Positions 12,357 to 27,633 of a stretch of DNA of 27,633 bases are shown here, one piece after another; within the stretch, counting starts at the first letter, position 1; each line of letters opens with the position of its first letter. A model generated the notes under the pieces. It was not told where the DNA came from, did not search any database, and worked only from the letters and a program-made list of their open reading frames with translations. The DNA comes from a virus (Duplodnaviria; Caudoviricetes). Made by a program: the position numbers and the translations under genes. Location of the stretch: positions 1-27,633 of IMG/VR virus record IMGVR_UViG_3300047384_000133. One strand, written 5' to 3'.

Positions 12357-12362
12357 CCGCGC

Positions 12363-12461
12363 ATGAATTTGAAGAATATACTCACCGGGAGTGCTGGGTA
12401 TATCATTAGTGTCAGCTTCTCTATATATATGATGAACATATATTTAGCGATCTACACTTAA
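12363..12461 (+). CDS. Small single-TM peptide, 32 aa (not in ORF track)
   Basis: MNLKNILTGSAGYIISVSFSIYMMNIYLAIYT; ATG 6 nt after TATAAT; fills the intergenic gap. Confidence 0.5.
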   Translation: MNLKNILTGSAGYIISVSFSIYMMNIYLAIYT

Positions 12462-12469
12462 ACCAGTGC

Positions 12470-12727: not shown

Positions 12728-12793
12728 TACGCACCTCTTTATAGAGATATGCGTATTATATAACGATTTTTATATATTATTGCAAACTTTTTG

Positions 12794-13654
12794 TTAAAAA
12801 GGTGTAGGTATCAAACCAAATATAAGTTCGTGATCAGGACAATTTTTCTTATCCATTTGTTGTTTTGGATTTAATAAAACACCTTTCTTACCACAACGCC
12901 AAGTAGCCCCGGAAACTTCTATCATTGGCTTTGAATGTTTGCAGTTTCTACAGTTTTTAAACTCTGGTTCTGCCCTACCTAGATAAACTTCTTTAGATTC
13001 TTTTGGTAAGTTCTTAACCTTCCAATCGTTTTCACTCAAGAATAAATCTGGTGGCTCTGGCGAAGTAATAATTCTTTTCGCCTTCTCTATCAAAGATTGA
13101 AAGAGCTCATCATTATATTTAATTACTTCAGTATAAATATCAGAATTGTTTTTGTTGTAAACCAAAGCTAAAGACTTAGGTAATTTAAAAGCACCCATAT
13201 AACAATGCACTTGCGCTTCATATTCTAGCGACCAACGCTCGTAACTACTTTCACTAACTAGATTATTAAATCTTCTGTCATTGGAACTCTTAACTTCTAG
13301 GACCATAGAATCATCATTATGTTCTGGCAAGTTTTTAACTACGCCATCTATGTGCCCAGAGAAGTGATCGCCAAGTAAAGAAGCTTTGAACTGATCGCCC
13401 TTTTTATCTTCAGTAAATACTTCTACGCCATCTGCTTTTTTAAGATACTCAATGACTACATCTTCAATAACATTACCTAGTTCTAAGATCCTAGATACTC
13501 TTGGCTCAAACTTATTTGGTGGTAAACACCATCTAAAATTTAACCACAACATTCTTTCGTCTGGATTACCAATCTGACTCATACCTAAATATGGTCGATA
13601 CTTTGGTGGTTCAGATAACATTACATGATCTATCATTTTATTTATTTTGCTCAT
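12794..13654 (-). CDS. Cas4-like/PD-(D/E)xK phage exonuclease
   Basis: RPYLGMSQIG, GHIDG, LEVKS, QVHCYM (RecB-family motifs), C-terminal CRNC...C...C; AGGAG RBS; ATGA overlap with the helicase. Confidence 0.8.
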   Translation of the reverse strand: MSKINKMIDHVMLSEPPKYRPYLGMSQIGNPDERMLWLNFRWCLPPNKFEPRVSRILELGNVIEDVVIEYLKKADGVEVFTEDKKGDQFKASLLGDHFSGHIDGVVKNLPEHNDDSMVLEVKSSNDRRFNNLVSESSYERWSLEYEAQVHCYMGAFKLPKSLALVYNKNNSDIYTEVIKYNDELFQSLIEKAKRIITSPEPPDLFLSENDWKVKNLPKESKEVYLGRAEPEFKNCRNCKHSKPMIEVSGATWRCGKKGVLLNPKQQMDKKNCPDHELIFGLIPTPF

Positions 13655-15321
13655 AGAAATATCTCCTTATCATTAAAAATTATTTTCTTTACATTAAAAT
13701 ATTTACCTTCTCTTTTTATGCCAACAGACTTAACTCCTTTAAGAGCTCCTTGATTTATCTTGGCCGCTGCTTGTTCAGAAGTTCTAGGCACACCCCAAAT
13801 TTTTGGATCTACTAAACGGCACCAATGGTTGATTGCTAGTCCGTGCATTCTTGAATGACCAAACATAAGTGGCATCATTCTAGGTAAGAATTGATTATCA
13901 ACATAAAAGAATACCTTACAATATTTGTTGCCATTTTTAGAGTCAGCAACAGCAGCACTAACACTGGTTACAACTTCTAAAGAACTCTTGTTCTTTTGTT
14001 TCTCGTCAGAGATAACTGCTCCAGAATCTGCCTTGGTTTTCTTAGCTACCTTTCTTTCTTCCATAGGCACTAAGAAAGTTAAGAACTCTGCTACTGGGAA
14101 CTCTTCATTGCATTCGACACATTTCTTTGCATGAGGTGGATTGACAGCCAAACAACTGCCACAGATTTTAGGTCTTCTTATTTTTACTTCTTGATCTGGC
14201 TTGGCTGTATCAATACAACCATGTCTAGCAATGTTCTCGCCATAATCTAAAAGCAAACAATTATCTTTCCCTGGGTACAGTCGCATACCTCGGCCACACA
14301 TCTGAACGTAAAGCCCTAAACTTTTGGTTGGCCTTAACATAGCAATACAATCTGTTCTTGGTGCGTCCCAACCTTCTGTTAAGACGCCGACATTACAAAC
14401 AGCATGTACTTTTCCAGATTCAAAATCTTCTAGTATTTGTTTTCTTTCTTCTCCAGGGGTTTCGCCAGTTAGTAATCTTGATTCAATCCCATGCTTCTGC
14501 AAATGCATGTTCATTTTCATAGCATGCAATACCGATACACAAAAAAATACGGAAGCTGTTCTGCCTTTGGTATATGCTTTGTCTAACCAATCGTTAATGA
14601 TTGCGACGATGGTCTTCTCATCCATAGCTAATTTTTCTAAATCGGATTCTTTATAATCGCCACCTTTAAATTTAAGCTTGGCTTTACTAGCGTCAATAAT
14701 AGTATTGTCATCTACTTTATAAGAAGTAATCCTAGCTAGATAACCTTGATCTATTAGTTCTGGTATCTTTGCTTGATAAGCAATGTCATGAAAGAAATGA
14801 TCTTTTCTTTTGCCATAAATATAACCTTGACCCATACGATAAGGCGTAGCAGTACAACCTAAAACACGCATAGCTCGTTCAGCAGACAACTCATTGATTA
14901 TCTTTTGGTATCTAGTTTGTTCGTCCGGGGATATGTTATGGGCTTCGTCAATAATGGTATAATCAAAGTGCCCAACTTTTTTTAATCTAGATCCAGAGGC
15001 TAACGTATCTCTTGAAGCTACAAGTATTTGAGAATCCAACTCAGATCTTTTCAGCCCAGCTGATAACACACCGACTGGTGCCTCTGGCCATACAGATTTT
15101 ATTTTTTCTTCTGCTTGTTCGATAAGTTCTTGTCTATGTGCTAAGACTAAAAACCTAGCGTCAGAATATTTTTTTATGGTTCTTTTAATAAAGTTAGAAA
15201 ATATAACTGTCTTGCCAGACGCAGTAGGCAAACTGAGTAGAGGGTGTTTCTCTATTGACTCAGTTGCAAACCAACTTTCTAGTGCAGTGATAGCGTCTTC
15301 TTGATACGGTCTTAGTTTCAT
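13651..15321 (-). CDS. SF2 DEAH helicase (RadD/YejH-like) with zinc finger
   Basis: LRPYQ, LPTASGKT, IIDEAH, TAT, LTEGWD, QMCGRGMR; CGSC...CVEC. Confidence 0.92.
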   Translation of the reverse strand: MKLRPYQEDAITALESWFATESIEKHPLLSLPTASGKTVIFSNFIKRTIKKYSDARFLVLAHRQELIEQAEEKIKSVWPEAPVGVLSAGLKRSELDSQILVASRDTLASGSRLKKVGHFDYTIIDEAHNISPDEQTRYQKIINELSAERAMRVLGCTATPYRMGQGYIYGKRKDHFFHDIAYQAKIPELIDQGYLARITSYKVDDNTIIDASKAKLKFKGGDYKESDLEKLAMDEKTIVAIINDWLDKAYTKGRTASVFFCVSVLHAMKMNMHLQKHGIESRLLTGETPGEERKQILEDFESGKVHAVCNVGVLTEGWDAPRTDCIAMLRPTKSLGLYVQMCGRGMRLYPGKDNCLLLDYGENIARHGCIDTAKPDQEVKIRRPKICGSCLAVNPPHAKKCVECNEEFPVAEFLTFLVPMEERKVAKKTKADSGAVISDEKQKNKSSLEVVTSVSAAVADSKNGNKYCKVFFYVDNQFLPRMMPLMFGHSRMHGLAINHWCRLVDPKIWGVPRTSEQAAAKINQGALKGVKSVGIKREGKYFNVKKIIFNDKEIFL

Positions 15322-15324
15322 TGA

Positions 15325-15468
15325 TCATCTTCCTTGTCCTCTATATGCTTTGAAGGACTTTCTTTTATTCTTGTTCATACTACTGAACTTTACGTTGCGT
15401 GAACCTTGACTAGTTTTTTTATACTTAGCCCTAGATATGTGTATTTTTACTTCTCTTCTTATAGCCAT
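15325..15468 (-). CDS. Small basic protein ending in YRGQGR, 47 aa (not in ORF track)
   Basis: MAIRREVKIHISRAKYKKTSQGSRNVKFSSMNKNKRKSFKAYRGQGR; start overlaps the upstream stop (TGATG); fills the gap before the helicase. Confidence 0.8.
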   Translation of the reverse strand: MAIRREVKIHISRAKYKKTSQGSRNVKFSSMNKNKRKSFKAYRGQGR

Positions 15469-15896
15469 CAGTGTCTCGTTTTATCCTTGCTTTCCATTTG
15501 AAGTTTAACAGCGTCGAGTACTTCTTCTTCATCAAGCTCCTCTGGATCTATTACATAATCTTCATTCATAGAGTTCCAATCGGTGTTAGCTCCTCCAGCT
15601 AAATTGCCTAGCATATCTGCTTGAAAGAAAACTTCTTTTCTAGTCATGCCTTTTTCTTTAGCAATATCGTTAATGACTCTGCCCCAGGATGCACCGATCA
15701 ACATCGTTGCTTCATTGGTACTGTGTTCCAATACGTCGTAAGTGACGCAACAAACATAGGTTAATAATACTTCTAATAATTTATGTGGACTTTTGATTTC
15801 TCCCATTCTTTTGTTGAATGACATCATGTGCATTCGTAATTCTTCTAACAATTCCTTCTTGGAGATCACTTCCAAATCTATTTTGTCTTCTTTCAT
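15468..15896 (-). CDS. Hypothetical protein
   Basis: 142 aa in operon; AAGGTG RBS; acidic C-terminus. Confidence 0.7.
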   Translation of the reverse strand: MKEDKIDLEVISKKELLEELRMHMMSFNKRMGEIKSPHKLLEVLLTYVCCVTYDVLEHSTNEATMLIGASWGRVINDIAKEKGMTRKEVFFQADMLGNLAGGANTDWNSMNEDYVIDPEELDEEEVLDAVKLQMESKDKTRH

Positions 15897-16047
15897 ATAA
15901 CACCTTCGCTCTCTTTAATCTGTTTATCGAAACAACACAAGCCGCAACTTCGTCAAATAATTCAACTGGCAGTATGTGATTGTTTAACTTATATATTTTT
16001 GCTAACAACTTCTCAGAGTTAGCGACTAATTTTTTATCATCAATCAT
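15781..16047 (-). CDS. Hypothetical protein (its RBS is the predicted sRNA target)
   Basis: 88 aa; TAGGA RBS; 3' end overlaps the next gene by 116 nt. Confidence 0.6.
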   Translation of the reverse strand: MIDDKKLVANSEKLLAKIYKLNNHILPVELFDEVAACVVSINRLKRAKVLYERRQNRFGSDLQEGIVRRITNAHDVIQQKNGRNQKST

Positions 16048-16066
16048 ATTTGTTTCCTAATGTGTG

Positions 16067-16114
16067 CCTACCGAGCTCGTAACGCCGCTCGTATTAATTA
16101 ACTTGCTCGGTAGG
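16067..16114 (-). promoter_or_regulatory. Intercistronic GC-rich stem-loop (10-bp stem, 28-nt loop)
   Basis: CCTACCGAGC (16067-16076) pairs with GCTCGGTAGG (16105-16114), directly upstream of the RBS of 15781..16047. Confidence 0.65.
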
Positions 16115-16136
16115 ACTTTTTTGGGAGATGACCCAG

Positions 16137-16616: not shown

Positions 16617-16729
16617 GATAAATTTAACTCCTCGCGAAGACATAAAGTACAACAAAGAAGGCCTTTGTATTTATACCCACCGTCTAAAATTTCTTCTCCA
16701 CAGTGGTCACACAAAATCTCCTCTGACAC
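16613..16729 (-). CDS. Small zinc-finger protein, 38 aa (not in ORF track)
   Basis: GTG start after GGAGG; MSEEILCDHCGEEILDGGYKYKGLLCCTLCLREELNLS; ATGA overlap with DUF669. Confidence 0.7.
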   Translation of the reverse strand: MSEEILCDHCGEEILDGGYKYKGLLCCTLCLREELNLS

Positions 16730-16730
16730 T

Positions 16731-17492: not shown

Positions 17493-17811
17493 TGTTGTAC
17501 CTCCCTGGAACTACTTCTGTACCTAATTTTTTCATGGTAGCAACAAAGTCTATTAAGAAATTAGCTTTGCCTTTGGTTCTAGCATGTGGTTCGATTTGAT
17601 CTCGATAATAAAATTGCATGAGACTTTTGTGAGTCATGCCTGAGATCTTTGCAATATGAGCAAAACTCAAACCATCTGCTCTTAAATAATCTACTGCTTT
17701 TACAAAGTCATTAATATTGAAATAATGTTTTGCATAATAGTCGTAAGCATCGGCAAACAACTTTTCCTTAGACTCGCTTTGTGCGGAAGTCATCTCTATT
17801 TTTTTACTCAT
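17479..17811 (-). CDS. HTH DNA-binding protein
   Basis: GLSFAHIAKISGMTHKSLMQFY fits an XRE-type helix-turn-helix; GAGG RBS. Confidence 0.6.
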   Translation of the reverse strand: MSKKIEMTSAQSESKEKLFADAYDYYAKHYFNINDFVKAVDYLRADGLSFAHIAKISGMTHKSLMQFYYRDQIEPHARTKGKANFLIDFVATMKKLGTEVVPGRYNNAKS

Positions 17812-18263
17812 TTGGTTTTCCTCTTTTCAACAAAGCTGACGTATGGACGATCTGATATTTCAGTAGTCAAACCTTCAGCTAATTTATAGTAATGGGATGG
17901 ATGTTGTTCAGCTAGAGTAGAAGTTTTTCTTTTGTCTTCTTTATACTCTATTTGAAATGGCCAAAGATTAGCTGGCACCTTGCCTTCGGCATGTATCTTT
18001 GCAACATAGTCTTGATCCCAAGATTTCTTCAAACGGTACTCAACTTTAATATCAGAATCTAAATCATCAAGGGTTACTCGATGAGATCCCCCGGTATTAC
18101 TAAGCTGAATTACTTGATCGTTTACTCTTGGGTGTCTTGCTATTGCAATGTCTAACTCTTTAGATTCCTCACGGAGTTTCTTTTGCCATAGCAAATTCTT
18201 TTTCTTTCTTTCGATAAGTTCTTGGAGTTCGTCGAACTCGGTTTTCTCTTTTATATCGTTCAT
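17808..18263 (-). CDS. Hypothetical protein, first gene of the recombination operon
   Basis: 151 aa with N-terminal coiled coil; ATGA coupling to the next gene. Confidence 0.7.
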   Translation of the reverse strand: MNDIKEKTEFDELQELIERKKKNLLWQKKLREESKELDIAIARHPRVNDQVIQLSNTGGSHRVTLDDLDSDIKVEYRLKKSWDQDYVAKIHAEGKVPANLWPFQIEYKEDKRKTSTLAEQHPSHYYKLAEGLTTEISDRPYVSFVEKRKTK

Positions 18264-18293
18264 AAAATCTCTCTTTAAATTTGTTCATTGCCA

Positions 18294-18322
18294 ATTAAAT
18301 AGATAAAGATTCAGAATGTCAA
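18294..18322 (-). promoter_or_regulatory. Sigma70-like leftward promoter
   Basis: TTGACA-N17-TTTAAT on the minus strand, upstream of 18263. Confidence 0.55.
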
Positions 18323-18363
18323 ACACTTTTTTAAATTAATTTATACAAATATGTAAAAAAAAA

Positions 18364-18392
18364 TATACATTATGAAAATGCTTCTCTATAAT
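18364..18392 (+). promoter_or_regulatory. Sigma70-like rightward promoter (leaderless cro-like transcript)
   Basis: TATACA-N17-TATAAT; ATG 6 nt downstream at 18399. Confidence 0.55.
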
Positions 18393-18398
18393 AACGCC

Positions 18399-18605
18399 AT
18401 GAATAAATTACAAGAATATATAAAAAACAGAGGCAAAGAGAATGTTGCAACGATATGTGATGTATCAGTACATGCAGTCAGCTCTTGGTATTATGGAACA
18501 AGACAACCTACAGTCAAACAAGCTAAAAAGATTATGTTGGTTACTAATAAAGCTCTTAACTGGGAAGACATCTATGGACCTATTGAGGAAGAGGCTGAAG
18601 CATAA
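18399..18605 (+). CDS. Cro-like HTH regulator
   Basis: VATICDVSVHAVSSWYYGTRQP; 68 aa from MNKLQEY (the track's upstream 9 codons overlap the -10); precedes the primase. Confidence 0.78.
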   Translation: MNKLQEYIKNRGKENVATICDVSVHAVSSWYYGTRQPTVKQAKKIMLVTNKALNWEDIYGPIEEEAEA

Positions 18606-18625
18606 CAAATAATTTTGGGAGAAAT

Positions 18626-20632
18626 ATGTCGCTGATACTAAACGAAAATAAATCTTGGGAAAATATTTCCGAGGAAGCCAGACAAGAGATGATTTGGTCT
18701 TTCTGGGAAGAAGGCTTTCATTTAATACCTTGTGGTTCTCGAAACGAAGCTATCCCAGAATACTTTAGAAAGCGTCATCCGTTTGAAGACGATGACAAGC
18801 TCAGTGCAAAATGGGCAAAGACACCCAGAGTCAGATGGGAAACTTATCAAAGAAGACAACCCACGCAAGAAGAATTAAGAGAGTGGTTGGCTCGATATCC
18901 GGGAGCCAACTGGGCTGCTATCACTGGGATAACTTTTGTTGTCCTAGATTGCGATAGCGAAGAGGCGGTCAAGTTCGTAGAATCTGGTCAAGTAACTAGA
19001 TCGCCTCTTAAACAGAAGACTCCTCGCGGTGGCTATCATTATTTTTATCAAGTCAATGAAGGTCTGAATGTCAGAAACATGACTGGTAAATTAGATGTCA
19101 GAGGCGAAGGTGGTTACGTTATGGTTTCACCTTCTACTAAATATTTTTTTGAAACAGCAGCTGGCTTGGTCGTGAACGACATCGATGATTTGCCGATGCT
19201 TAATATGGAAGACTTGAACAACATACATGATTACAATCAATCGGATAAGGTTACTTCGATTCTAGATAATAAAAACAAACTCACTGCTGACCCAGTAGAT
19301 GTTGGTCAAAGAAACGATACCTTGGCTAGATTGATTGGTAAATGGATTAAAGAAGGTTGGGGTTATCGTGAAGTCTTGATTAAATGTTTTGATTGGAATC
19401 AAACTTTGCAACAACCTTTACCCTTTCCAGAAGTATTGCAAACATGTATGTCGATTACCCAAGGACATATCAAACGACACCCAGAAGATACGGATGCTGG
19501 TATCTTAGAATGGAAAACTAGTGAATGGGAGATAGATTTAAAAGATGAACTCAAAGAGATTATGGATCAAGAAGATCCTATCATCGACCAAAAGCGTAAA
19601 GATGATTTAACAGACCCACTAGGTTTAAAACCTTACAACGATGAGTTCTGGACTGGCTTGGAGCCTAGTTCTATTGGTCAGTTTTGGGGTGATTGTTTTA
19701 TCTTTGAACAATCTAGATGTTTGTTGATTGGTAAACCCAAGATAGGTAAGTCGCATTGGCTTGGCGGTTTTGCTGCGGCAGCCACAACTGGACAATCATT
19801 TATGGGCAAACCTTTTACGCGTCCTTGTAAAGTTATGTGGTTGCAAGCAGAGATTATCCAAGAGTTCTTAAAAAATAGAATCGATACTTACTACCAACCT
19901 TACATGCATGACCCAGACTTGATGGCGATGGGACATGCTAACTTGATACCGACTGGTAGATTGAGAAAGAATTTAATGAGAGATAAAGATATTGATGGCA
20001 TCGCTAGAAGTATTGAATATCATCAGCCAGATATTGTGATGATTGACCCTATCATTAATTTTTTTGATGGCGAAGAGAACAGCAACCAAGAGATACATAA
20101 TTTATTATCTAGAGTAGATCGTTTGATTGAACTCTTTGGTGTTGCAGTAATCATCGCACATCATACTGGTAAAGAAAGAGCCGACGACGCTTCGTTTATG
20201 TCAGCACGTGGTGGTTCTGCTTTTGCTGGGTGGATGGATTCTGGTATCAAACTCATGGGACAAAAGCCAAATGTAACGATGTTCTATGAAGCAAGAAACG
20301 CAAGGGAGCCAGATACACACTTGGCTAGATTTGATTTTGAAAAAGGAACATGGGACATGGTTGATTTTGACGAGGGTCCAGATGAAGTAGATATTGCTCA
20401 GAAGGTAGCTGATGCAATGGATAGAATTACTTTCTATACAAGACAAGAGTTAGAGATCTTGGCAAGACAAGCGTTGAAAGAAAACAATTTACCTAGTGGC
20501 GAACGAGCTGCAAGATACGCGGTTAGTCATGTGCAAAAGTATTTAGGCGATATAGTTAAGACTCATGCTATCCCTGGAAAACAAACTTGGCATTATCGAT
20601 TTGATAACAAGGGTAGGAAACCTTGGGAATGA
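18626..20632 (+). CDS. Primase-polymerase (Prim-Pol + PriCT) fused to an AAA_25/RepA-like helicase
   Basis: VVLDCD, TPRGGYHYFY, DVRGEGGYV, GQRNDTL; Walker A GKPKIGKS, IVMIDP, HHTGK, RGGSA; GGGAG RBS. Confidence 0.92.
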   Translation: MSLILNENKSWENISEEARQEMIWSFWEEGFHLIPCGSRNEAIPEYFRKRHPFEDDDKLSAKWAKTPRVRWETYQRRQPTQEELREWLARYPGANWAAITGITFVVLDCDSEEAVKFVESGQVTRSPLKQKTPRGGYHYFYQVNEGLNVRNMTGKLDVRGEGGYVMVSPSTKYFFETAAGLVVNDIDDLPMLNMEDLNNIHDYNQSDKVTSILDNKNKLTADPVDVGQRNDTLARLIGKWIKEGWGYREVLIKCFDWNQTLQQPLPFPEVLQTCMSITQGHIKRHPEDTDAGILEWKTSEWEIDLKDELKEIMDQEDPIIDQKRKDDLTDPLGLKPYNDEFWTGLEPSSIGQFWGDCFIFEQSRCLLIGKPKIGKSHWLGGFAAAATTGQSFMGKPFTRPCKVMWLQAEIIQEFLKNRIDTYYQPYMHDPDLMAMGHANLIPTGRLRKNLMRDKDIDGIARSIEYHQPDIVMIDPIINFFDGEENSNQEIHNLLSRVDRLIELFGVAVIIAHHTGKERADDASFMSARGGSAFAGWMDSGIKLMGQKPNVTMFYEARNAREPDTHLARFDFEKGTWDMVDFDEGPDEVDIAQKVADAMDRITFYTRQELEILARQALKENNLPSGERAARYAVSHVQKYLGDIVKTHAIPGKQTWHYRFDNKGRKPWE

Positions 20633-20633
20633 T

Positions 20634-20642
20634 TGGTACAAT
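20634..20642 (+). promoter_or_regulatory. Extended -10 promoter (TGnTACAAT), leaderless MTase transcript
   Basis: TGGTACAAT, then 6 nt, then ATG 20649; no SD. Confidence 0.5.
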
Positions 20643-20648
20643 TTGTAT

Positions 20649-21932
20649 ATGAAAGTTTTAAGTTTATTCGATGGCATGAGTTGTGGTCAGTTGGCACTGA
20701 ATAGACTCGGCATCAAAGTCGATAAGTATTACGCAAGTGAGATAGATAAGTATGCGATACAAGTTACTCAAGCAAACTTCCCAGAAACAATACAAGTTGG
20801 CGATGTCTGTAATTTAAAAGCAGAAGATTATCAAGACATAGATTTAATTTTAGCTGGTAGTCCTTGCCAAGGCTTTAGTTTTGCTGGTAAGCAGTTGGCT
20901 TTTGATGATCCGCGTTCAGCGTTGTTCTTTGAATTTATTAGATTGTTGAAAGAGATCAAGCCAAAGTATTTTTTACTTGAGAACGTCAAGATGAAGAAAG
21001 AATTTCTGGAAGTCATTACCGATCAAGTATCAGCTTGTTATCCAGAGTTTCAAGGTAAAGATTTATTTGGTGGCAAGATTGAACCGATATTAATTAATAG
21101 TGCTTTGGTATCAGCACAATCTAGACAAAGATATTATTGGACAAACATACCTAATGTTGAACAGCCAGACGATCTGGGCATAGTATTGAGAGATGTTTTA
21201 GAAGACGAAAGTCAAGCAGATTTGGTTGGCAATAACGGTAGAGAAGCATTTAAAGAAAATATACAGAAAGGCACTGCTTTATTAGCTAGAGATTGGAAAG
21301 GTTGGAATACTTATGGCATGACTGGAGTACAAACTACACCCAAACAAGTAGGTATAGCATCAGATATTAATGGTCATGACATTTTAAAAAGAGTGTATAG
21401 CCCAGATGGTAAGTCGCCTACTTTGAATACTATGGGTGGCGGTAATCGTGAACCCAAGGTAGTTTCTGGAGGTGCTTTTCGCGGTAGAGCTTACGATGAT
21501 AAAGGCAAACGCATGGATAAAAATGGCAACTCGGTAGCTAACAAAACAAAACAAATGTTAGAAATGAGAAAAGACGATAAAGCAAATGCAATAACTACAG
21601 TAGGCAAAGATAGTATTGTGGTATCAGAAAAAACTAATCAGATAAATCCTAGTAAAAAAGCTAGTGGCAGACAACCTTACATACAAGACAGAGTCTTTCA
21701 CAAAGATGGTAAGTCACATGCTTTGACAGAGTCTTTTGCTGACAGAACAAATGTTGGCGAACACAGTGATTTAACTTGGCGGAAACTGACGCCCTTGGAA
21801 TGCGAAAGATTGCAGACAGTCCCAGACAATTACACTGATCATGTATCAAAGACACAAAGATATAAGATGTTGGGTAATGGTTGGACAGTCAGTGTGATCT
21901 CACATATCTTGAGTAATATGGAGAGTCAATGA
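20649..21932 (+). CDS. DNA (cytosine-5) methyltransferase
   Basis: Motif I SLFDGMSCG, IV GSPCQGFS, VI LENV, VIII QSRQRYYW, IX RKLTPLECERLQ, X LGNGW; start moved to MKVLSLF. Confidence 0.95.
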   Translation: MKVLSLFDGMSCGQLALNRLGIKVDKYYASEIDKYAIQVTQANFPETIQVGDVCNLKAEDYQDIDLILAGSPCQGFSFAGKQLAFDDPRSALFFEFIRLLKEIKPKYFLLENVKMKKEFLEVITDQVSACYPEFQGKDLFGGKIEPILINSALVSAQSRQRYYWTNIPNVEQPDDLGIVLRDVLEDESQADLVGNNGREAFKENIQKGTALLARDWKGWNTYGMTGVQTTPKQVGIASDINGHDILKRVYSPDGKSPTLNTMGGGNREPKVVSGGAFRGRAYDDKGKRMDKNGNSVANKTKQMLEMRKDDKANAITTVGKDSIVVSEKTNQINPSKKASGRQPYIQDRVFHKDGKSHALTESFADRTNVGEHSDLTWRKLTPLECERLQTVPDNYTDHVSKTQRYKMLGNGWTVSVISHILSNMESQ

Positions 21933-22774
21933 GAAACCCATACAAGATAGAAGGCCCCGCATTGATTAGTTTCTCTGGTGGTAGAACGTCTGGCTTCATG
22001 TTGAAGCAGATAGTAGATGCTCACGATGGTGTCCTCCCAGAAGATGTGCACATAACTTTTGCAAACACTGGTAAAGAAATGCCTGAAACTTTGGATTTTG
22101 TCAGAGATTGTGGCGAACATTGGGGCGTCAAGATCAATTGGTTAGAGCTAGAGATAGGTGAAGAACGGCCGATATATCGTACAAAAATAGTGAACTATGA
22201 GTCAGCTTCTAGAAATGGTGAGCCCTTCGCTGCTTTGTTAGATAGAAGGGCGTATCTACCTAACCCAGTAGCTAGATTTTGCACAGCCGAGATGAAGATT
22301 AGAAGAATGAAAGATTTTATGTGGAAGGTTCAAGGCTACAAACACTGGGACAATATCCTTGGTTTGCGACATGACGAGCCGAAGCGTGTAGCCTCATCGC
22401 GTAATGCTTCGACTAAGGAGCGTTGGGATAACTACATGCCTATGTATGAAGCAAAGCATGGGATAGATGAGGTATTAGAATTTTGGCAGAAAGCTAACTT
22501 TGATCTGAGTTTACCGACAATCAATGGTCAAACAGTAGCTGGTAATTGTGACTTGTGTTTCTTGAAGGGACGCAAAACTCTCAATGCCTTGATGAAGGAA
22601 CGACCTGATCTAGCAGATTGGTGGATTGCCCAGGAGAATAGATTCGGTAATGAGTCTGGCGCAACCTTTCGATCTGACAGGCCGCCCTACATTGAGCTCG
22701 TTGAGGAGGCAAAAAATCCTAAGATGTTGGATCTATTTGAGGACGATAGTATGTCGTGTTTTTGTCATGATTAA
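21929..22774 (+). CDS. PAPS-reductase-family (PP-loop, Cys-rich) protein
   Basis: ISFSGGRTS, NTGKE, RFCT..MK, GNCDLCFLK, terminal CFC; ATGA-coupled to the MTase. Confidence 0.85.
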   Translation: MRNPYKIEGPALISFSGGRTSGFMLKQIVDAHDGVLPEDVHITFANTGKEMPETLDFVRDCGEHWGVKINWLELEIGEERPIYRTKIVNYESASRNGEPFAALLDRRAYLPNPVARFCTAEMKIRRMKDFMWKVQGYKHWDNILGLRHDEPKRVASSRNASTKERWDNYMPMYEAKHGIDEVLEFWQKANFDLSLPTINGQTVAGNCDLCFLKGRKTLNALMKERPDLADWWIAQENRFGNESGATFRSDRPPYIELVEEAKNPKMLDLFEDDSMSCFCHD

Positions 22775-22784
22775 GCTAAAAAAC

Positions 22785-22948
22785 GGTTGTGCAACGCTAA
22801 TTGGCGATTTTGCACAGCGTCTGAAAAAAGTCAATAAAATCAATGACTTAACGATTGTGCAGTTGTGCAAGTGCACATGCCTGCACATGCGCACAGCGTA
22901 CGCTGAAACCCTTATGTTTATTGGGTTGTGCAGTTGTGCGGTTGTGCA
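22785..22948. repeat. Iteron-like TGTGC/GCACA array; putative replication origin (or packaging site)
   Basis: Ten cores at 22788, 22812, 22856, 22864, 22873, 22883, 22891, 22927, 22935, 22943 in both orientations; 8-bp tandem units GTTGTGCR. Confidence 0.7.
22838..22850 (+). promoter_or_regulatory. IHF-binding site
   Basis: AATCAATGACTTA matches WATCAANNNNTTR exactly, with an A-rich 5' flank, between iteron clusters. Confidence 0.6.
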
Positions 22949-22966
22949 CTTCTATAAGAAGGGAAA

Positions 22967-23009
22967 GAGTGGGGATAAATCCCACATTCCCACTCCCTTT
23001 TTCTTTCTT
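22967..23009 (+). terminator. Possible intrinsic terminator / alternative hairpin
   Basis: GAGTGGGGA pairs with TTCCCACTC, followed by CCTTTTTCTTTCTT; a second CCCAC copy competes. Confidence 0.4.
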
Positions 23010-23053
23010 AATATAATTAATAAAACAGTGAGGTAAAACATGGGAAGAGTAAA

Positions 23054-23176
23054 ATGAGAGGTACAAAGATAAGGTACAACGGAAGGTTGTCAGAAAAAAC
23101 ATTAGAAGATGTAAGAATCGGTGTGAATAGGAGATTGAATGCAAAGGAAAAGCAAAAGGCCAAAGTTGAACGATGA
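23054..23176 (+). CDS. Small basic protein, 40 aa (not in ORF track)
   Basis: MRGTKIRYNGRLSEKTLEDVRIGVNRRLNAKEKQKAKVER. Confidence 0.45.
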   Translation: MRGTKIRYNGRLSEKTLEDVRIGVNRRLNAKEKQKAKVER

Positions 23177-23345
23177 GATTATTCATACTGAATACACTTA
23201 CGATAGAGTTAATCGAGGAAAAGTAATACAATTATTAGATATGCAGTTTTTGTATCAGATGAAAGATGGTTCAATAAGGCATTGTATGTTTGATGAAGAC
23301 TGGAGATTTGTAACAGATGGCAAAACCAAAAAAGAAATTAACTAA
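23139..23345 (+). CDS. Hypothetical protein
   Basis: 68 aa; AGGAG RBS; overlaps the terS start. Confidence 0.65.
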   Translation: MQRKSKRPKLNDEIIHTEYTYDRVNRGKVIQLLDMQFLYQMKDGSIRHCMFDEDWRFVTDGKTKKEIN

Positions 23346-23823
23346 AATGCAAGAGGTCTTTGTGAACTTGATGGTGTATCAAGATCTCAATCAAAGTGAG
23401 TGTGCTTTTCGTGCTGGATTTAAAAATCCAGAAGTTATTGCCAGTCGTATGATGAACAATGAAGAATATTCGCATGTCCAAGAGAGGATTAGGGATATGA
23501 AAGCTCTGCAAAGGAAGAAGTATGATATTACTTTTGAGAATGTAGCCGGGAAGTTAGCAACAATTAGAGATGCTGCGGCATCAGATGGATCGTATGGACC
23601 TGCAGTAAATGCTGAGATAGCCAGAGCAAAATTAGGCGGACTCATGGTTGATCGCAAGGAAGTGCGGTTTGGTAAGATTGACTCTATGAGTAGAGAAGAA
23701 CTGGAAAATAGATTGAATCAACTCATAGAAGAAAATCAAATCAAATCAATAGATGGAGAAGTTAGAGTAATAGAGGACGAAGATGATAGTACAGAAGATA
23801 AAAGATTATCTGGAAGAAAGTAA
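23317..23823 (+). CDS. terS: Terminase small subunit
   Basis: LTKMQEVF...NQSECAFRAGF...ASRMM N-terminal HTH pattern of Terminase_2-like proteins, followed by oligomerisation-type helices; GGAG RBS. Confidence 0.72.
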   Translation: MAKPKKKLTKMQEVFVNLMVYQDLNQSECAFRAGFKNPEVIASRMMNNEEYSHVQERIRDMKALQRKKYDITFENVAGKLATIRDAAASDGSYGPAVNAEIARAKLGGLMVDRKEVRFGKIDSMSREELENRLNQLIEENQIKSIDGEVRVIEDEDDSTEDKRLSGRK

Positions 23824-23896
23824 TTCTCAAGGAATACTTATTGATCCAGAACAATTATTAGAATTAATTGGTGAATGGGAAACTGAAGAAGATTAG
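23783..23896 (+). CDS. Small acidic protein, 37 aa (not in ORF track)
   Basis: MIVQKIKDYLEESNSQGILIDPEQLLELIGEWETEED; GAGG RBS; stop overlaps the convergent stop. Confidence 0.5.
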   Translation: MIVQKIKDYLEESNSQGILIDPEQLLELIGEWETEED

Positions 23897-24036
23897 TCTC
23901 CTAATTCTCCACCTTCTGCGAGTTGTACTATTCTTTTAGATCTAGCTACTGGATCAGATATTAAAAGCATTGATATCAATTTATCGTTTTCGTAGCCACA
24001 AATTGCGTTGTTTTCTATTTTAAATTTAATCATCAT
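23893..24036 (-). CDS. Hypothetical protein, 47 aa (not in ORF track)
   Basis: MMIKFKIENNAICGYENDKLISMLLISDPVARSKRIVQLAEGGELGD; GAGG RBS. Confidence 0.55.
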   Translation of the reverse strand: MMIKFKIENNAICGYENDKLISMLLISDPVARSKRIVQLAEGGELGD

Positions 24037-24280
24037 TTAAATTATCCTCGTGTGTTGCGATCAATTTATTTAAATACCATCTTGCTTTGCGCAAATCATC
24101 TAGCATTTTTCCTTTGTATTCATGACGCCAGACATATTTCATAACATTACCTTTGAGATAACCTTGAAATTGTCTAGTGGTCATTGAAGCTTGAATGGCC
24201 TCAATACATTCAATATCCCCGGTGTTGTAGTGTGATGGGTTGTTTATTAAATCTATTGCGTTTGTTTTTTTATTCGCCAT
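24026..24280 (-). CDS. DUF3310 protein (T7 gp1.7-related nucleotide kinase-like domain)
   Basis: NNPSHY...IECIEAI...GYLKGNVMKYVWR..YKG...DLRKARWYL. Confidence 0.9.
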   Translation of the reverse strand: MANKKTNAIDLINNPSHYNTGDIECIEAIQASMTTRQFQGYLKGNVMKYVWRHEYKGKMLDDLRKARWYLNKLIATHEDNLNDD

Positions 24281-24458
24281 TGTTTACATTCCTACTTGTT
24301 TTCATATAACAAGCTCGGCAAAATCCTTTTGGATATTCATGTGGCCTAGTCATCTCGCCATTTACCCAAAGACCTTCTTCTTCCGGGACTTGTGCGTTGC
24401 AACTATCACAATAGTATTCAACAGCTTGAACGCCTTTCTTCCAAATAATTACTTCCAT
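24270..24458 (-). CDS. Small zinc-finger protein
   Basis: CDSC...CRAC; GGAG RBS; TAATG coupling. Confidence 0.7.
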   Translation of the reverse strand: MEVIIWKKGVQAVEYYCDSCNAQVPEEEGLWVNGEMTRPHEYPKGFCRACYMKTSRNVNNGE

Positions 24459-24637
24459 TAGTATTTTTCTCCAAAGATTATATTAAATTCTTCATCTGTA
24501 AGATCCAAACGAAGTTTAATAATATCCCAGGCGTTGTCAATTTGTGCGTCCTCTTCGGTATATGGCTTTGCTCGATTGTCAAATAGTTTTTTCTCGATCA
24601 CATTTACAGCTTCAACTGGCGTCATTTTATTTTTCAT
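24458..24637 (-). CDS. Hypothetical protein, 59 aa (not in ORF track)
   Basis: MKNKMTPVEAVNVIEKKLFDNRAKPYTEEDAQIDNAWDIIKLRLDLTDEEFNIIFGEKY; GAGG RBS. Confidence 0.7.
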   Translation of the reverse strand: MKNKMTPVEAVNVIEKKLFDNRAKPYTEEDAQIDNAWDIIKLRLDLTDEEFNIIFGEKY

Positions 24638-24749
24638 GTTCCCTCACAAATTCTAAAAGTTCTTGTAGTTTGTCTAAAAGATAATCTTCATAATCAGACT
24701 CATCTGCGAGTCTTTGCGACAATTCAATAACTAATTCGCTATATTTCAT
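24627..24749 (-). CDS. Small acidic protein, 40 aa (not in ORF track)
   Basis: MKYSELVIELSQRLADESDYEDYLLDKLQELLEFVREHEK; GGAGG RBS. Confidence 0.7.
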   Translation of the reverse strand: MKYSELVIELSQRLADESDYEDYLLDKLQELLEFVREHEK

Positions 24750-24942
24750 GCGTCCTCCTAAATTCTTCTATATCCTCTGGTAGATCAACAGAACAAATTT
24801 CTCCACCAAGCCAATCTGTTGATTCCCAATCTTCATCAAAACAAGACTTACCAGCAATCTCCTCTGCTTTTTCATAGGTATCAGCTTCTACTTCTATTTG
24901 TAAACATTCAGTAGCTATCATTTCAAATTTATATTTCTTCAT
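24739..24942 (-). CDS. Small acidic protein (DpnD/PcfM-like VEA motif)
   Basis: KYKFEM...IEVEADTYEKAEEIA; GAGGAGG RBS. Confidence 0.6.
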   Translation of the reverse strand: MKKYKFEMIATECLQIEVEADTYEKAEEIAGKSCFDEDWESTDWLGGEICSVDLPEDIEEFRRTHEI

Positions 24943-25310
24943 GCTTCCTCCTCTTGTAAAAAAATATCTTGGTTATCTGATTGAATGCTTTGGTATTTAT
25001 CTGGATTTTCTTGCATATCCTCTTGAGTCCATTTTTCTGCTAAATCCCACGCTAGATTCTCTTGATCTAAAAAGCTAACAAATTTTTCAACTGTTATCTC
25101 ATCAATAATAGTTCTCTCGCTACTATCAATAACATCATTTATTATTTGTTCGTCTTCAACTATCGACCATTGCGAATTGTCAGCAGTTTCATTTTTAAAT
25201 AATGGTGCTGTCCACAATTGATAAAAATAGCCATCAATAGTTTCCATAATATAAGCATTGCCTTCATACTTAGGAACAGTATAAATTTCTAATTGGTTAT
25301 CGTTTTTCAT
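24939..25310 (-). CDS. Acidic hypothetical protein
   Basis: 123 aa; GGAG RBS; coupled starts and stops. Confidence 0.7.
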   Translation of the reverse strand: MKNDNQLEIYTVPKYEGNAYIMETIDGYFYQLWTAPLFKNETADNSQWSIVEDEQIINDVIDSSERTIIDEITVEKFVSFLDQENLAWDLAEKWTQEDMQENPDKYQSIQSDNQDIFLQEEEA

Positions 25311-25525
25311 TATTTATTCTCCATTATTTTATAGCCATCTTCTTTTTGAAATTCATAAGTAGTACTGCCTTCAACCAAGCCATCACATTCTTGACAGATT
25401 TGTTCCATATCAATACCACTTTCCCTTTGCACAAACTCCCAACCTTCCTTGCAGTTAGTACAACTTCCAAGCACTTCAAAGACTTGATCTTCTAATTTAA
25501 CTTTCATACCTTTTTTATATTTCAT
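25310..25525 (-). CDS. Small zinc-binding protein
   Basis: CTNC...CQEC; AGGTG RBS. Confidence 0.65.
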   Translation of the reverse strand: MKYKKGMKVKLEDQVFEVLGSCTNCKEGWEFVQRESGIDMEQICQECDGLVEGSTTYEFQKEDGYKIMENK

Positions 25526-25526
25526 T

Positions 25527-25967
25527 TCAACACCTACAAAATTTAATTATTTCTTGGTCTATCTTGGGCGATAGTTCGTTTAATATGTTGATACCGCCTT
25601 GATACCTAGTAAAAAATTCACACGACCAACCGTCAGATTTAAAAGAATAATCATCAGATGGTTTGCCAATTGCGTTTTCAATCACGCCTATGACATTTAG
25701 TGCGAGTCCTTCATACTCTTGATCTAGATTATTAAAGTCTAATCCGAACATGCACCAATCATTTATGTCCTCTGGGTATTCGTTAACCCATTCATACTGC
25801 GGATTAAGTTCATCATCAAGTTTTGGTTCAAATAAATCTGCTTGATTTATCAGCCAGATTAAGTCCTCATGGTCTGTTTTATAGCCAAAGTGAATACACC
25901 CCCCTCCACTATGGAAGGGGAATAGCTTTTCATTTTTGCTTAGTAATTGTTTGCTAGTGTCTTTCAT
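25527..25967 (-). CDS. Acidic hypothetical protein
   Basis: Start moved to MKDTSK (TAATG overlap, GGAG RBS); HSGGGC motif. Confidence 0.65.
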   Translation of the reverse strand: MKDTSKQLLSKNEKLFPFHSGGGCIHFGYKTDHEDLIWLINQADLFEPKLDDELNPQYEWVNEYPEDINDWCMFGLDFNNLDQEYEGLALNVIGVIENAIGKPSDDYSFKSDGWSCEFFTRYQGGINILNELSPKIDQEIIKFCRC

Positions 25968-26149
25968 TATCCTAACTCCTCGTCCCATTCAAATTCCCAA
26001 CCAAGTTTAAGACATAACTTTTTATAAGTTTCTCTGCCACTTGTAGTCATTGATTGATAATCCCAACCGAGATCGTCAACCAAATTTGCGATTATTTGGT
26101 ACTGTTTAACTCCTATCTTTGAGATAAGTTCTTTTCTATTATCTTTCAT
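25967..26149 (-). CDS. Hypothetical protein
   Basis: 60 aa; GAGGAGG RBS; TAATG overlaps. Confidence 0.7.
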   Translation of the reverse strand: MKDNRKELISKIGVKQYQIIANLVDDLGWDYQSMTTSGRETYKKLCLKLGWEFEWDEELG

Positions 26150-26475
26150 TAGGCGACCTCCTCAAGTTCGTTTAAATAATCTGCTATGATTTCTTCGCCT
26201 ATGATATAAGCGTACATATTCACAACTTTTTCTGGTTCAGATAAATCAGTATAAACTTCTCCGAAGTTATCTTGCTCATAATCTTTAATAAAATTAATTA
26301 CATCAAAAGCCATATCACCTAGCCATTGTTTAGCTTGATAAGTGCCTATAATGTAATAGTCAGTATTAAAAGCGTGATGGTGGATATCATCTTTGTTTTC
26401 TTCTATCCATTCAACATCTTGGTCGTTGATAAAATCATCAAAGTATTCTTTGATTTCTTCTTTTTTATAATCCAT
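26149..26475 (-). CDS. Ocr-like acidic antirestriction / DNA-mimic candidate
   Basis: 108 aa, 29 D/E vs 7 K and 0 R; DDIHHHAFNTDYY segment and acidic end recall T7 Ocr; AAGGAG RBS; near the head of an early operon. Confidence 0.55.
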   Translation of the reverse strand: MDYKKEEIKEYFDDFINDQDVEWIEENKDDIHHHAFNTDYYIIGTYQAKQWLGDMAFDVINFIKDYEQDNFGEVYTDLSEPEKVVNMYAYIIGEEIIADYLNELEEVA

Positions 26476-26593
26476 TGTTATTCTCCTTCTTAGTTAAAAT
26501 ATTCAAAGGGTCGAAAGTAAGAATAAAATTCATAGCCTTTTTAGTATTTTTAATAGACTGTAACTCTTTGAGTTTCTTTTCATTTATTTTCAT
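26465..26593 (-). CDS. Small basic protein, 42 aa (not in ORF track)
   Basis: MKINEKKLKELQSIKNTKKAMNFILTFDPLNILTKKENNNGL; AAGGAG RBS; first ORF after the promoter. Confidence 0.6.
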   Translation of the reverse strand: MKINEKKLKELQSIKNTKKAMNFILTFDPLNILTKKENNNGL

Positions 26594-26620
26594 TGTTTTT
26601 CTCCTTGAAAATGGTTAATT

Positions 26621-26649
26621 AATATAAGAATTATTACATATTTTTACAA
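26621..26649 (-). promoter_or_regulatory. Sigma70-like early promoter
   Basis: TTGTAA-N17-TATATT on the minus strand with AT-rich upstream DNA. Confidence 0.6.
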
Positions 26650-26788
26650 TATGTGCATGACTATTTACATAAAATGACATATATATTTTAGATAATAAAA
26701 GTTAATAAACTTTTTCGCATTCAATTGATATAGATTAATAAACACGATTTCGACCCCCTCGCACACATAATCAAAATGTTTTCAGTTT

Positions 26789-26886
26789 GATCTAGTGCGA
26801 TCTGCGGTTTATGAAATAAAAAAAAATCCGATCTGCGATTTCCAGATCCGAAAATTTCGCCAGATCAATTTGCGATTTGCGATTTA
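26789..26886. repeat. Cluster of short GATYT/TGCGA repeats (five GATC in 78 bp)
   Basis: CGATCTGCG x2, CCAGATC x2, TTTGCGATTT x2; GATC at 26789, 26799, 26830, 26845, 26863. Confidence 0.55.
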
Positions 26887-26893
26887 TGTATAT

Positions 26894-26930
26894 AAAAAAA
26901 AAGAAACCCCAAGATCCGAAGATCTTGAGG
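26894..26930 (-). terminator. Rho-independent terminator with cUUCGg tetraloop
   Basis: CCTCAAGATC-TTCG-GATCTTGGGG followed by TTTCTTTTTTTTT. Confidence 0.85.
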
Positions 26931-26977
26931 CACCATTAGGAGAACAAATTTGTCGAGAGAGTTCGACAAGTGCGAGT
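26894..26977 (-). ncRNA. Candidate trans-acting small RNA with anti-SD seed (~84 nt)
   Basis: TATAAT (26988-26983), then hairpin TTGTCGA-ACTCTC-TCGACAA, unpaired ATTTGTTCTCCTAATGGT, then an intrinsic terminator; seed complementary to the RBS at 16048-16069. Confidence 0.65.
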
Positions 26978-27057
26978 TTAACATTATAAATGTGCGAATT
27001 GCTACTATTTAAATCTTCCGGGAGAGTTCCCGGGCCTGCGTTTTTTCATCTGGCTAC

Positions 27058-27094
27058 AAAAAAAAGAAGGCCCACTAGAAAAACTAGTGGACCT
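27058..27094 (-). terminator. Rho-independent terminator
   Basis: AGGTCCACTAG-TTTTT-CTAGTGGGCCT followed by TCTTTTTTTT, downstream of 27153..27470. Confidence 0.85.
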
Positions 27095-27103
27095 AGGGGG
27101 GAT

Positions 27104-27141
27104 GTGCGACCAAGTTTGTATTAGGGAGAGCTTGGTCGCAC
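27104..27141 (-). other. 3'-UTR stem-loop with C/U-rich anti-SD-like loop
   Basis: GTGCGACCAAG-CTCTCCCTAATACAAA-CTTGGTCGCAC (11-bp perfect stem). Confidence 0.65.
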
Positions 27142-27152
27142 GGTTTTGGAAA

Positions 27153-27470
27153 TCAGCCATTCTTCCAAGACAACTCTTTGAAGTCGTAGCCACCTAAAAC
27201 ATCAGAAACCAAGAAGCCCCATTCCATGTGGTACAAAGTACCATCATGGTCATCATCGAATTCGCCATATTTCTCTTGGTCTGACCAATAGCCACCATAG
27301 ACACCGCCATCCAATTCTTTTTTATCTAAGAAGAATGAATAGTCCATGAACCCGGAACTATTGATGTGAGCGTACATTTCAAAGGTTCCTTCTGCGAGTT
27401 CCAGTTTGAAACTGTAAGGACTTGCGTCCTCCTCTGTTCTGTCTAAGTACGCGTCATCCATAGTTCTCAT
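27153..27470 (-). CDS. Acidic hypothetical protein
   Basis: 105 aa, D/E and aromatic rich; GGGGAG RBS; ATGA overlap. Confidence 0.7.
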   Translation of the reverse strand: MRTMDDAYLDRTEEDASPYSFKLELAEGTFEMYAHINSSGFMDYSFFLDKKELDGGVYGGYWSDQEKYGEFDDDHDGTLYHMEWGFLVSDVLGGYDFKELSWKNG

Positions 27471-27619
27471 TTGTACTCCCCTGATCTTTCAAATTTATCT
27501 TCGCCGACTTGAATAACAAAGCCGACCTCTAATGCTTTCTCTAGTAGTTGGTCCTGGTCTAGTTCAAAACAAAAACTAGGTGCTTGTTCCAACCATAAAG
27601 ATTTTTTTGTATATATCAT
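27467..27619 (-). CDS. Hypothetical protein, 50 aa (not in ORF track)
   Basis: MIYTKKSLWLEQAPSFCFELDQDQLLEKALEVGFVIQVGEDKFERSGEYK; AGGAGG RBS. Confidence 0.7.
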   Translation of the reverse strand: MIYTKKSLWLEQAPSFCFELDQDQLLEKALEVGFVIQVGEDKFERSGEYK

Positions 27620-27633
27620 AATTCCTCCTAATG

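Follow-up and report, generated by a model that had tools for sequence, protein, structure and literature searches.

A likely new family of phage small RNA with a plausible ribosome-binding-site target 10.9 kb away

The stretch of DNA considered here, which we call the window, is the IMG/VR virus record IMGVR_UViG_3300047384_000133 (Duplodnaviria; Caudoviricetes), a linear 27.6-kb fragment (27,633 nucleotides, nt) with a G+C content of 36.6%. Near its right-hand end, between two early operons of the minus strand and past the terminator of the upstream one (27094-27068), lies a short element that has the same orientation as both of these operons. A preliminary description of the window had proposed that this element encodes a stand-alone small RNA (sRNA) complementary to a ribosome-binding site (RBS) of the same phage in another part of the window, and when the sequence is read directly all the features that it listed are present where it had placed them.

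The putative promoter of the sRNA has a TATAAT -10 box (26988-26983, minus strand), which is flanked by two ATTCGCAC/ACTCGCAC repeats, and a weak -35 region. The presence of TCGCAC repeats on both sides of the -10 box suggests that the promoter is controlled by a DNA-binding protein, a candidate for binding such repeats being the helix-turn-helix protein 18372..18605. The predicted transcript would be about 83 nt long (26977-26895, minus strand), with its ends placed by the -10 box and the U-tail. Both the sequence and the predicted fold give a first hairpin of 7 base pairs (bp), hairpin 1 (26969-26950; TTGTCGA / ACTCTC / TCGACAA, or UUGUCGA-ACUCUC-UCGACAA as RNA), followed by a stretch that is predicted to be unpaired and that we refer to as the seed (AUUUGUUCUCCUAAUGGUGCCU, 26949-26928). 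The seed contains a motif shared by the whole family described below, UUCUCCUAA, which resembles the anti-Shine-Dalgarno (anti-SD) sequence. The terminator scan identified an intrinsic terminator at 26931-26906, with a stem of 11 pairs closed by a c(UUCG)g loop, and, after the stem, a U3CU9 tail (UUUCUUUUUUUUU) ending at 26894. The unit is thus delimited by the terminators at 27094-27068 and 26931-26906, and a second terminator-like site follows downstream at 26848-26830. The minimum free energy of the predicted fold is -26.3 kcal/mol (z = -5.06), and none of 200 shuffled sequences folds equally well. Two further features of this region are recorded here as such: where hairpin 1 meets the seed there is a perfect palindrome of 10 nt, ACAAATTTGT (26944-26953), and a second hairpin stands upstream of the promoter (27011-27034; CCGGGA-ACTC-TCCCGG), of which the loop and the following AAGATTT are the same as in hairpin 1 (family D5).

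The element is not confined to the window. Family members were found on 20 IMG/VR contigs, on one TARA scaffold (L086) and on one contig of a metagenome-assembled genome (MAG; L078), and they fall into three subtypes, A, B and C, the window belonging to A. A census with a family-wide pattern returned 23 matches, 19 of them true copies (10 A, 5 B and 4 C), to which L003 has to be added. A 19-mer search of IMG/VR gave ten matches, nine of them true copies, plus two more loci with a single mismatch, and the element is present at 9/9 loci located through the neighbouring 105-amino-acid (aa) protein, even at 62-63% protein identity. An 18-mer scan of genome contigs gave eight matches, comprising one true copy (L078), three unrelated sequences and four that lie in one conserved flavobacterial/Chitinophagales coding region. 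The pattern TAATGTTAAACTCGCAC, designed for copies with a different seed, had 11 matches, nine of which are known subtype A copies and two chance occurrences in coding sequence (L063 and L069), and therefore no new seeds; a search for TCGCA clusters in 80 primase loci returned only L103.

Within subtype A, 48 of the 51 leading alignment columns, covering the 5' leader, hairpin 1 and the seed, are invariant in eight distinct variants, the flanks of which diverge freely; the seed is invariant in all eight up to GGUGC, and the TATAAT box is kept in seven, with L003 having TATGAT. Scored with the RNA model R1, the window reaches 117 bits and L086 116.6 bits. In the structure-based alignment of this subtype 95.8% of the cells assigned to pairs are in fact paired, as compared with at most 51% in slid controls. 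The terminator stem has changed on both sides in 5 of its 11 pairs, a covariation score that none of 500 shuffles reached, and one of the compensatory pairs involves the last C of the seed, which is replaced by U and matched by a G to A change. Subtypes B (L103, L193, L209/L226, L225 and L229) and C (L175, L204, L235 and L237) are syntenic with A, being located past the terminator of the upstream operon and ahead of the TCGCA repeats. What the three subtypes have in common is the hairpin core GUCGA(A)CUCUCUCGAC, invariant except in L003 and L078, the motif UUCUCCUAA, and a GC-rich 3' hairpin in which both stem and loop vary among variants with the pairing maintained. Members of B and C fold as three hairpins and present (C/U)UUCUCC in a 7-nt loop; in subtype C a promoter-like TTGGTA-18-TATACT stands 6 nt ahead of hairpin 1. 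Rfam 15, which includes C4, DicF and other phage and sRNA families, gave no match in the window at gathering thresholds, and a search of 26500-27250 with E up to 10 gave five matches, all of which score far under the gathering thresholds and among which no sRNA of comparable layout appears. This is the Rfam comparison that the preliminary description had called for, and its notion of a stand-alone unit on the minus strand is borne out in that the element is conserved, structured and without an Rfam match. We conclude that it likely represents a new small-RNA family.

The predicted target is the RBS region AGGCACACAUUAGGAAACAAAU (16069-16048, minus strand), which comprises the Shine-Dalgarno (SD) sequence and the spacer up to the ATG at 16047 of gene 15781..16047. 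It reads AGGCAC-A-CAUUAGGA-AACAAAU followed directly by the ATG, and the 21 bp of complementarity with the seed are indeed there, arranged in blocks of 6+8+7 with one bulged base per side and in exact register with the SD and the start codon. The 22-nt match of seed and target is beyond chance. Its edit distance is 2 over 22 nt; when 1500 dinucleotide-preserving shuffles were compared by a bit-vector edit-distance method, none reached 2 or less, one reached 3 and 69 reached 4. A duplex scan of both strands of the window ranked the target as the best site other than the element itself, at -28.2 as compared with -22.9 kcal/mol for the next site (mean -8.9, standard deviation 3.4). Among 40 annotated RBS windows the target scored -27.1 and the next one -16.5, a target score reached by 0/400 shuffles of the seed; with the UUCUCCUAA core held fixed the result was still 0/400, the best shuffle reaching -27.0.

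The gene behind this RBS encodes 88 aa, has no PHROG or Pfam family, and precedes a series of overlapping or coupled open reading frames (ORFs) that leads to a helicase (13651..15321) and a Cas4-domain exonuclease (12794..13654). The first two ORFs of the series as annotated, 15781..16047 (88 aa) and 15468..15896 (142 aa), have 116 nt in common, read in different frames, which would mean either that the latter has a later start, for example at an ATG near 15806, or that a frameshift links the two. The target RBS core ATTAGGAAACAAATATG is invariant in 25/25 relatives of this locus, down to 59-60% protein identity. GGCAC is found in 21 of the 25, the other four having a different hairpin that ends in CTTCGC, and C16062 is replaced by A or G in six. 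Both loci occur on one record only in the window and in L086, where the target is identical and a C to U change in the seed still permits a G-U pair; none of ten IMG/VR records checked, and 1 of 80 metagenome primase loci (L086 itself), carries both, and none of the genomes with such target variants shows seed and target loci together, their contigs breaking at or near the element. Taken on the sequence evidence, we regard 16048..16069 as a plausible target of the predicted sRNA.

Shorter matches to other RBSs are also present, as had been noted before; one of them, CATTAGGAG, falls on the RBS of 27467..27619 and the other, AGGAGAATAA, on that of 26149..26475. The label 'Ocr-like' that had been attached to the latter gene has no backing, its only matches being phrog_10208 and phrog_12228, both of unknown function, with no Pfam family; the encoded protein is acidic (isoelectric point 4.05). 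More generally, the core of the family is complementary to UUAGGAGAA, and RBSs with at least six contiguous matches to it are found at 6/14 genes of the early region (23893-27619) and at 4/27 genes elsewhere. In L265 and L268 an RBS AAGGAGAACAAATAATG, located about 650 nt downstream of the element, matches the seed perfectly over 12 nt. When RBSs within 900 nt of the element were compared, the cognate seed type gave the longest perfect local match at 9/9 loci of subtypes B and C and at 4/7 of subtype A (with one tie and two losses), and between subtypes the flavour of the seed (CUCCUAAU or CUCCUAAAGU) tracks that of the local RBS in 13/16 loci, which are mutually related. The best site in subtype C is the RBS of an opposite-strand gene about 630 nt upstream, which at -22.6 ranks first of 135 and first of 65 candidate sites. 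Pairing of hairpin 1 with the RBS AGAGAG(A/G)CGAC of the syntenic gene in B and C was considered as well and dropped; it falls outside the best 6 of 202 and of 184 sites.

Our favoured reading of these observations, to which we would give about an even chance of being right, is that the element defines a new phage sRNA family with an anti-SD core, which in subtype A blocks the RBS of 15781..16047 and, through the coupled frames, the helicase-nuclease block behind it. Let us suppose that an sRNA of about 83 nt is made as a stand-alone transcript from its own minus-strand promoter, with its 3' end at the U-tail. Through its exposed CU-rich stretch it would then base-pair with SD regions of the phage's own mRNAs. 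At gene 15781..16047 such pairing of the seed would occlude the binding site of the 30S subunit, and, as the following frames overlap or are coupled, expression of the downstream helicase and Cas4-like nuclease would be lowered as well. The matches of 7-12 nt to other strong RBSs, mainly those of the early region, may extend this action to a broader brake on early-gene translation. Transcription of the minus strand is indicated by the canonical terminator of subtype A, by the orientation shared with both flanking operons and by the promoter-like boxes, which stand a short and constant way ahead of hairpin 1, and reading the element on this strand gives some G-U pairs in the window, L008, L003 and L235.

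A considerable number of observations weigh against this reading. As to the RNA itself, the TATAAT promoter with its weak -35 was not flagged by a simple scan for the sigma-70 consensus. Certain A-C or C-A mismatches in L005, L007 and L003 would be G-U pairs if the plus strand were transcribed, so that the evidence on the strand is mixed. Contigs from RNA libraries (11 runs of three studies), placed on 26300-27633 and 7634-27633, cover the element in short pieces of low depth, together with scattered structural and replication genes, and these contigs carry no information on strand, ends or relative level. After the 3' hairpin, subtypes B and C continue with CAUUCAAAAAAAA or CAUUUAUCUGG and show no U-run. 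The Hfq-type layout that the preliminary description had recognised accordingly stands for the window, with its 11-pair stem and U3CU9 tail, is weak in L003 and L008, and fails in B and C; because B and C are without a U-run, the 3' end and this layout are secure for subtype A only.

As to the pairing, the target had been expected to be the top-ranked site; it is the best one in the duplex scan, and is barely ahead once intramolecular folding is counted, the cofold model placing it first of 40 RBSs by a margin of -16.6 to -16.4 and -14.9. The site is partly buried: AGG of the target (16069-16067) lies in the 3' arm of a hairpin upstream in the mRNA, and the last four nt of the seed, GCCU, fall in the base of the terminator stem. 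The target variants described above (6/25 at C16062 and 4/25 without GGCAC) have no known compensation, the seeds of 8/8 subtype A variants being identical. Only subtype A shows the long pairing. The RBS of the syntenic gene in B and C is a different one, AGAGAG(A/G)CGACATG, which is not complementary to the seed, and in a subtype B genome rated 98% complete no outstanding target site was found. The local-RBS comparisons described above were made post hoc and on related, non-independent loci. To these points must be added the similarity of the two loci beyond the seed, which brings us to the first of the competing explanations.

Directly upstream of the target RBS stands a hairpin, CCTACCGAGC...GCTCGGTAGG (16067..16122, plus strand), followed on the plus strand by ACTTTTTT; from its sequence, this combination looks like a terminator for antisense transcription. 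The order at the target locus on the plus strand, hairpin and then ACTTTTTT, parallels that in the 3' half of the sRNA, and the polarity of hairpin and A-run upstream of the target RBS is maintained in relatives even where the hairpin has been substituted by an unrelated one. The similarity of element and target continues into the adjacent hairpin arm and covers 28 of 35 columns by a hand count on the alignment, and RNA model R1 weakly matches 16027-16129 of the plus strand along its entire length (9.6 bits, E 6.2). Judging from these sequences, part of one locus was probably copied, in inverted orientation, to form the other. Since the similarity runs into the hairpin arm, an inverted duplication could explain the match without any regulation. 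Inverted duplication is at the same time a known route by which trans-antisense RNAs may arise, and it also lets the match be a relic.

One may therefore suppose that the RNA is real and the 22-nt match a by-product of common descent, one locus being an inverted copy of the other's cassette of A/U-run, hairpin, CAC and RBS, with the RNA acting through hairpin 1 and UUCUCCUAA not on gene 15781..16047 in particular but on other partners, for which a protein, an RNA of the host or the many strong SDs come into question. We consider this unlikely, and yet it accounts for a good deal: for the entry of the similarity into the 3' arm of the neighbouring hairpin, with both loci ordered A-run, hairpin, CAC, RBS; for the weak match of R1, along its entire length, to the target locus on the plus strand; for the fact that only hairpin 1 and UUCUCCUAA are common to A, B and C as sequence; for the lack of a long target in B and C; and for the near-equal cofold scores of several RBSs. 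It does less well with the seed flanks, which add much pairing past the core (0/400 core-fixed shuffles match the real value), with the exact register of the match with SD and start codon, and with the invariance of the seed and of the target core, each maintained as the neighbouring proteins fall to about 60% identity, which would be unexpected for a passive relic.

The target locus has one more peculiarity. The terminator-like hairpin at 16067-16122 faces the plus strand and stands in the middle of the minus-strand replication block. After the cluster of late genes no plus-strand terminator was found, and a promoter-like TTTATA-17-TATAAT lies at 12328-12356 (+). Because of this promoter-like site, the failure to find an intervening late terminator, and the hairpin at 16067-16122, a long antisense transcript running across 12470-16047 and stopping beside the target RBS is possible, as far as the sequence tells. 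A promoter scan inside the target gene, for an antisense promoter that would yield a cis copy of the RNA, found none.

A scenario wider than the favoured one, which we hold to be distinctly unlikely, would make the element a modular anti-RBS RNA. A fixed scaffold, consisting of the invariant hairpin 1 and the structural 3' hairpin, would display the anti-SD core, and the flanks of the core would be adapted, lineage by lineage, to the RBSs of selected phage operons, these being replication and recombination genes in the lineage of the window and the first genes of early operons in others. A lytic phage would thereby time its switch from early to middle expression by a trans-acting RNA instead of a RegA-like protein.

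A third possibility is suggested by the surroundings of the element. Downstream of the sRNA, TCGCA(C) repeats and GATC sites are gathered at 26715..26925, a region that has no strand assigned and that includes the terminator-like site 26848-26830 and the T run after it. The interval 26715-27136 holds 10 of the window's 35 TCGCA/TGCGA sites, and 7 of its 103 GATC sites fall within 133 nt, 26789-26921. The number and type of the repeats vary among relatives; L006, for example, has ATAGATCGTAAT four times. This cluster may be an origin or an operator array. Within it, a tandem duplication of about 75 nt (26796-26901; family D3) contains the terminator tail and ATAxCATAAAxCGCAxATCGCA twice, the second copy bearing its own terminator-like site, 26848-26830, and then a T run. 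Downstream of the repeats, a motif AAACTGAAAACATTTTGATTATGTGTGCGAGGGGG (26750-26790) is kept in subtype A, and a diverged form of it, TTTTGAAAACATTTCGCAAGG...GAGAGGGGGG, is found in subtype B.

In such surroundings the whole element might act at the level of DNA, as part of a replication origin or regulatory region with inverted and TCGCA(C)/GATC repeats that phage proteins bind, and its resemblance to an RNA gene would be accidental. The clustering of TCGCA/TGCGA and GATC sites around it, their differing number among relatives, the invariance of both stem and loop of hairpin 1, as in a protein-binding site, and the frequent breaking of assemblies at the element are all compatible with this idea, which we nevertheless rank lower again, as quite improbable. 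The 3' hairpin maintains its structure despite sequence changes in stem and loop, as RNA hairpins typically do; a canonical U-tail is present in subtype A, and the promoter-like boxes keep a fixed distance; and the invariant 22-nt stretch is itself no repeat unit.

We give still less credence to a function in cis, by which the element would serve the early operon downstream as its 5' leader or as an attenuator and its anti-SD would sequester the RBS of the first gene on read-through transcripts. In subtype C the element does lie only about 130 nt ahead of a gene with the RBS AACAAACTTTAGGAGAATAAATG, in which 12 contiguous nt match the seed, and without a U-tail in B and C read-through is plausible. 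In the window, on the other hand, two T-run terminator-like sites (26931-26906 and 26848-26830) and a separate promoter-like region (26657-26621) come before the next gene, 26465..26593; the downstream gene of subtype C is separated from the element by a strong promoter, TTGATA-16-TATAAT, and in subtype A the first downstream RBS matches the core over 7 nt only.

The preliminary description had itself named one alternative by which it might fail, a plus-strand ORF with a duplicated RBS, and this is disfavoured. The ORF in question is a TTG mini-ORF of 20 aa (26950-27012, plus strand) with a good SD, TAGGAGAACAAAT, and a spacer of 7 nt, followed by a hairpin and T run at 27017-27045. Its reading frame is 20 aa, 10 aa or absent among the family members: L003, L005 and L006 have lost the stop or have it in another place, subtype C has 10 aa, and in subtype B no start codon lies close enough to the SD, an in-frame TAG standing directly ahead of the conserved TCGAGAGAG. 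That the duplicated RBS TAGGAGAACAAAT serves this mini-ORF is hardly credible, for even with SD, spacer and TTG laid out like the genuine RBSs of this phage, a plus-strand terminator-like site at 27017-27034, and about nine ORF substitutions in subtype A variants of which four are synonymous third-position changes, the start, stop and length of the ORF are not conserved in A, B and C, the promoter scan found no plus-strand promoter, the product has no PHROG match, the near-total nucleotide invariance goes beyond coding constraint, and the downstream hairpin is not conserved. Three mechanically called ORFs of the region, 26795..26989 (+), 26990..27124 (+) and 27005..27193 (-), were set aside, having no PHROG match and crossing repeats that vary between relatives.

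It may be useful to place the favoured reading among known systems. P22 sar and lambda OOP are cis-encoded RNAs, transcribed opposite their target and fully complementary to it. The element would resemble them as a short phage RNA with a terminator hairpin that pairs with a phage mRNA, and would differ in pairing over 21 bp with two bulges at a site 10.9 kb away, with only the non-conserved mini-ORF opposite to it. RsaE/RoxS and the hairpins of RNAIII are of bacterial chromosomal origin, and their UCCC/CCCC motifs, in loops or single strands, pair with the SD of several mRNAs. Here too a pyrimidine-rich motif is predicted to be exposed, in B and C as (C/U)UUCUCC in the 7-nt loop; unlike these RNAs, the element is phage-encoded, its motif is UUCUCCUAA, and it has no Rfam match. 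T4 RegA is a protein repressor that binds the RBS regions of several early mRNAs, and would be the functional analogue of our broad reading, with a protein as effector where we propose an RNA. The c4 RNA, which acts on an antirepressor of a temperate phage, is processed from the very operon transcript on which its targets lie. According to a review (PMC12197685), c4 of P1/P7 is a phage antisense RNA that pairs around the RBS of a phage mRNA and blocks translation and downstream expression. The element shares with it the complementarity around the RBS of a phage mRNA, whereas it forms a separate unit with a promoter-like box and terminator of its own, its target lies in another operon, 10.9 kb away, and heads replication and recombination genes, and it has no match to the Rfam C4 family. 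DicF of the Qin prophage has host targets such as ftsZ and is cut from an operon transcript, whereas the target proposed here is a phage gene, and the Rfam DicF family is not matched. The same review describes DicF as a trans-acting phage-borne sRNA that blocks translation by pairing with mRNA (PMC12197685). According to this review few stand-alone trans-acting phage sRNAs are known, mostly from prophages of enteric bacteria (PMC12197685). A search of full-text literature and Rfam found no description of the element.

If the favoured reading is true, RNA-based timing control would extend to environmental lytic phages, in this case to an abundant uncultured marine lineage, and the system would offer a compact seed-target pair. 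If the match is only a relic of duplication, what remains is still a new structured RNA motif beside a likely origin or regulatory region.

As for the phage itself, PHROG matches divide the window into four blocks: structural and lysis genes on the plus strand (3-12318); genes for an SSB-like and a Sak4-like protein, the helicase and the Cas4-domain exonuclease on the minus strand (18263-12470); genes for a helix-turn-helix protein, a primase-polymerase, a methyltransferase, a PAPS-reductase-like protein and the small terminase on the plus strand (18372-23823); and numerous small early-type genes, most of them with acidic products, on the minus strand (27619-23893). Neither 26600-27160 nor 12001-20000 found a nucleotide match among the INPHARED phages, and a protein search with the primase of the window gave at best 24% identity to a cultured phage (Roseobacter phage CRP-810); because of this low identity, cultured relatives are of no help. 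The related contigs come from marine metagenomes, one relative being a 54.8-kb record rated 98% complete, and all carriers of the family apparently belong to an uncultured marine phage lineage with genomes of about 55 kb.

Assemblies of the relatives tend to stop at shared places. The 55-kb contig L081 stops at window coordinate 22464, and the IMG/VR record G001 (46.7 kb) has a similar end, roughly estimated at about 22,450. The metagenome contigs L082 and L085 stop at window coordinates 26806 and 26740, short of the element, and several IMG/VR contigs begin or stop within a few hundred bases of it. Lastly, the 8.2-kb contig L078, which carries an L003-type copy of the element, was placed by binning in a Lentisphaeria MAG of open-ocean origin, which is either a weak hint as to the host or a binning error.

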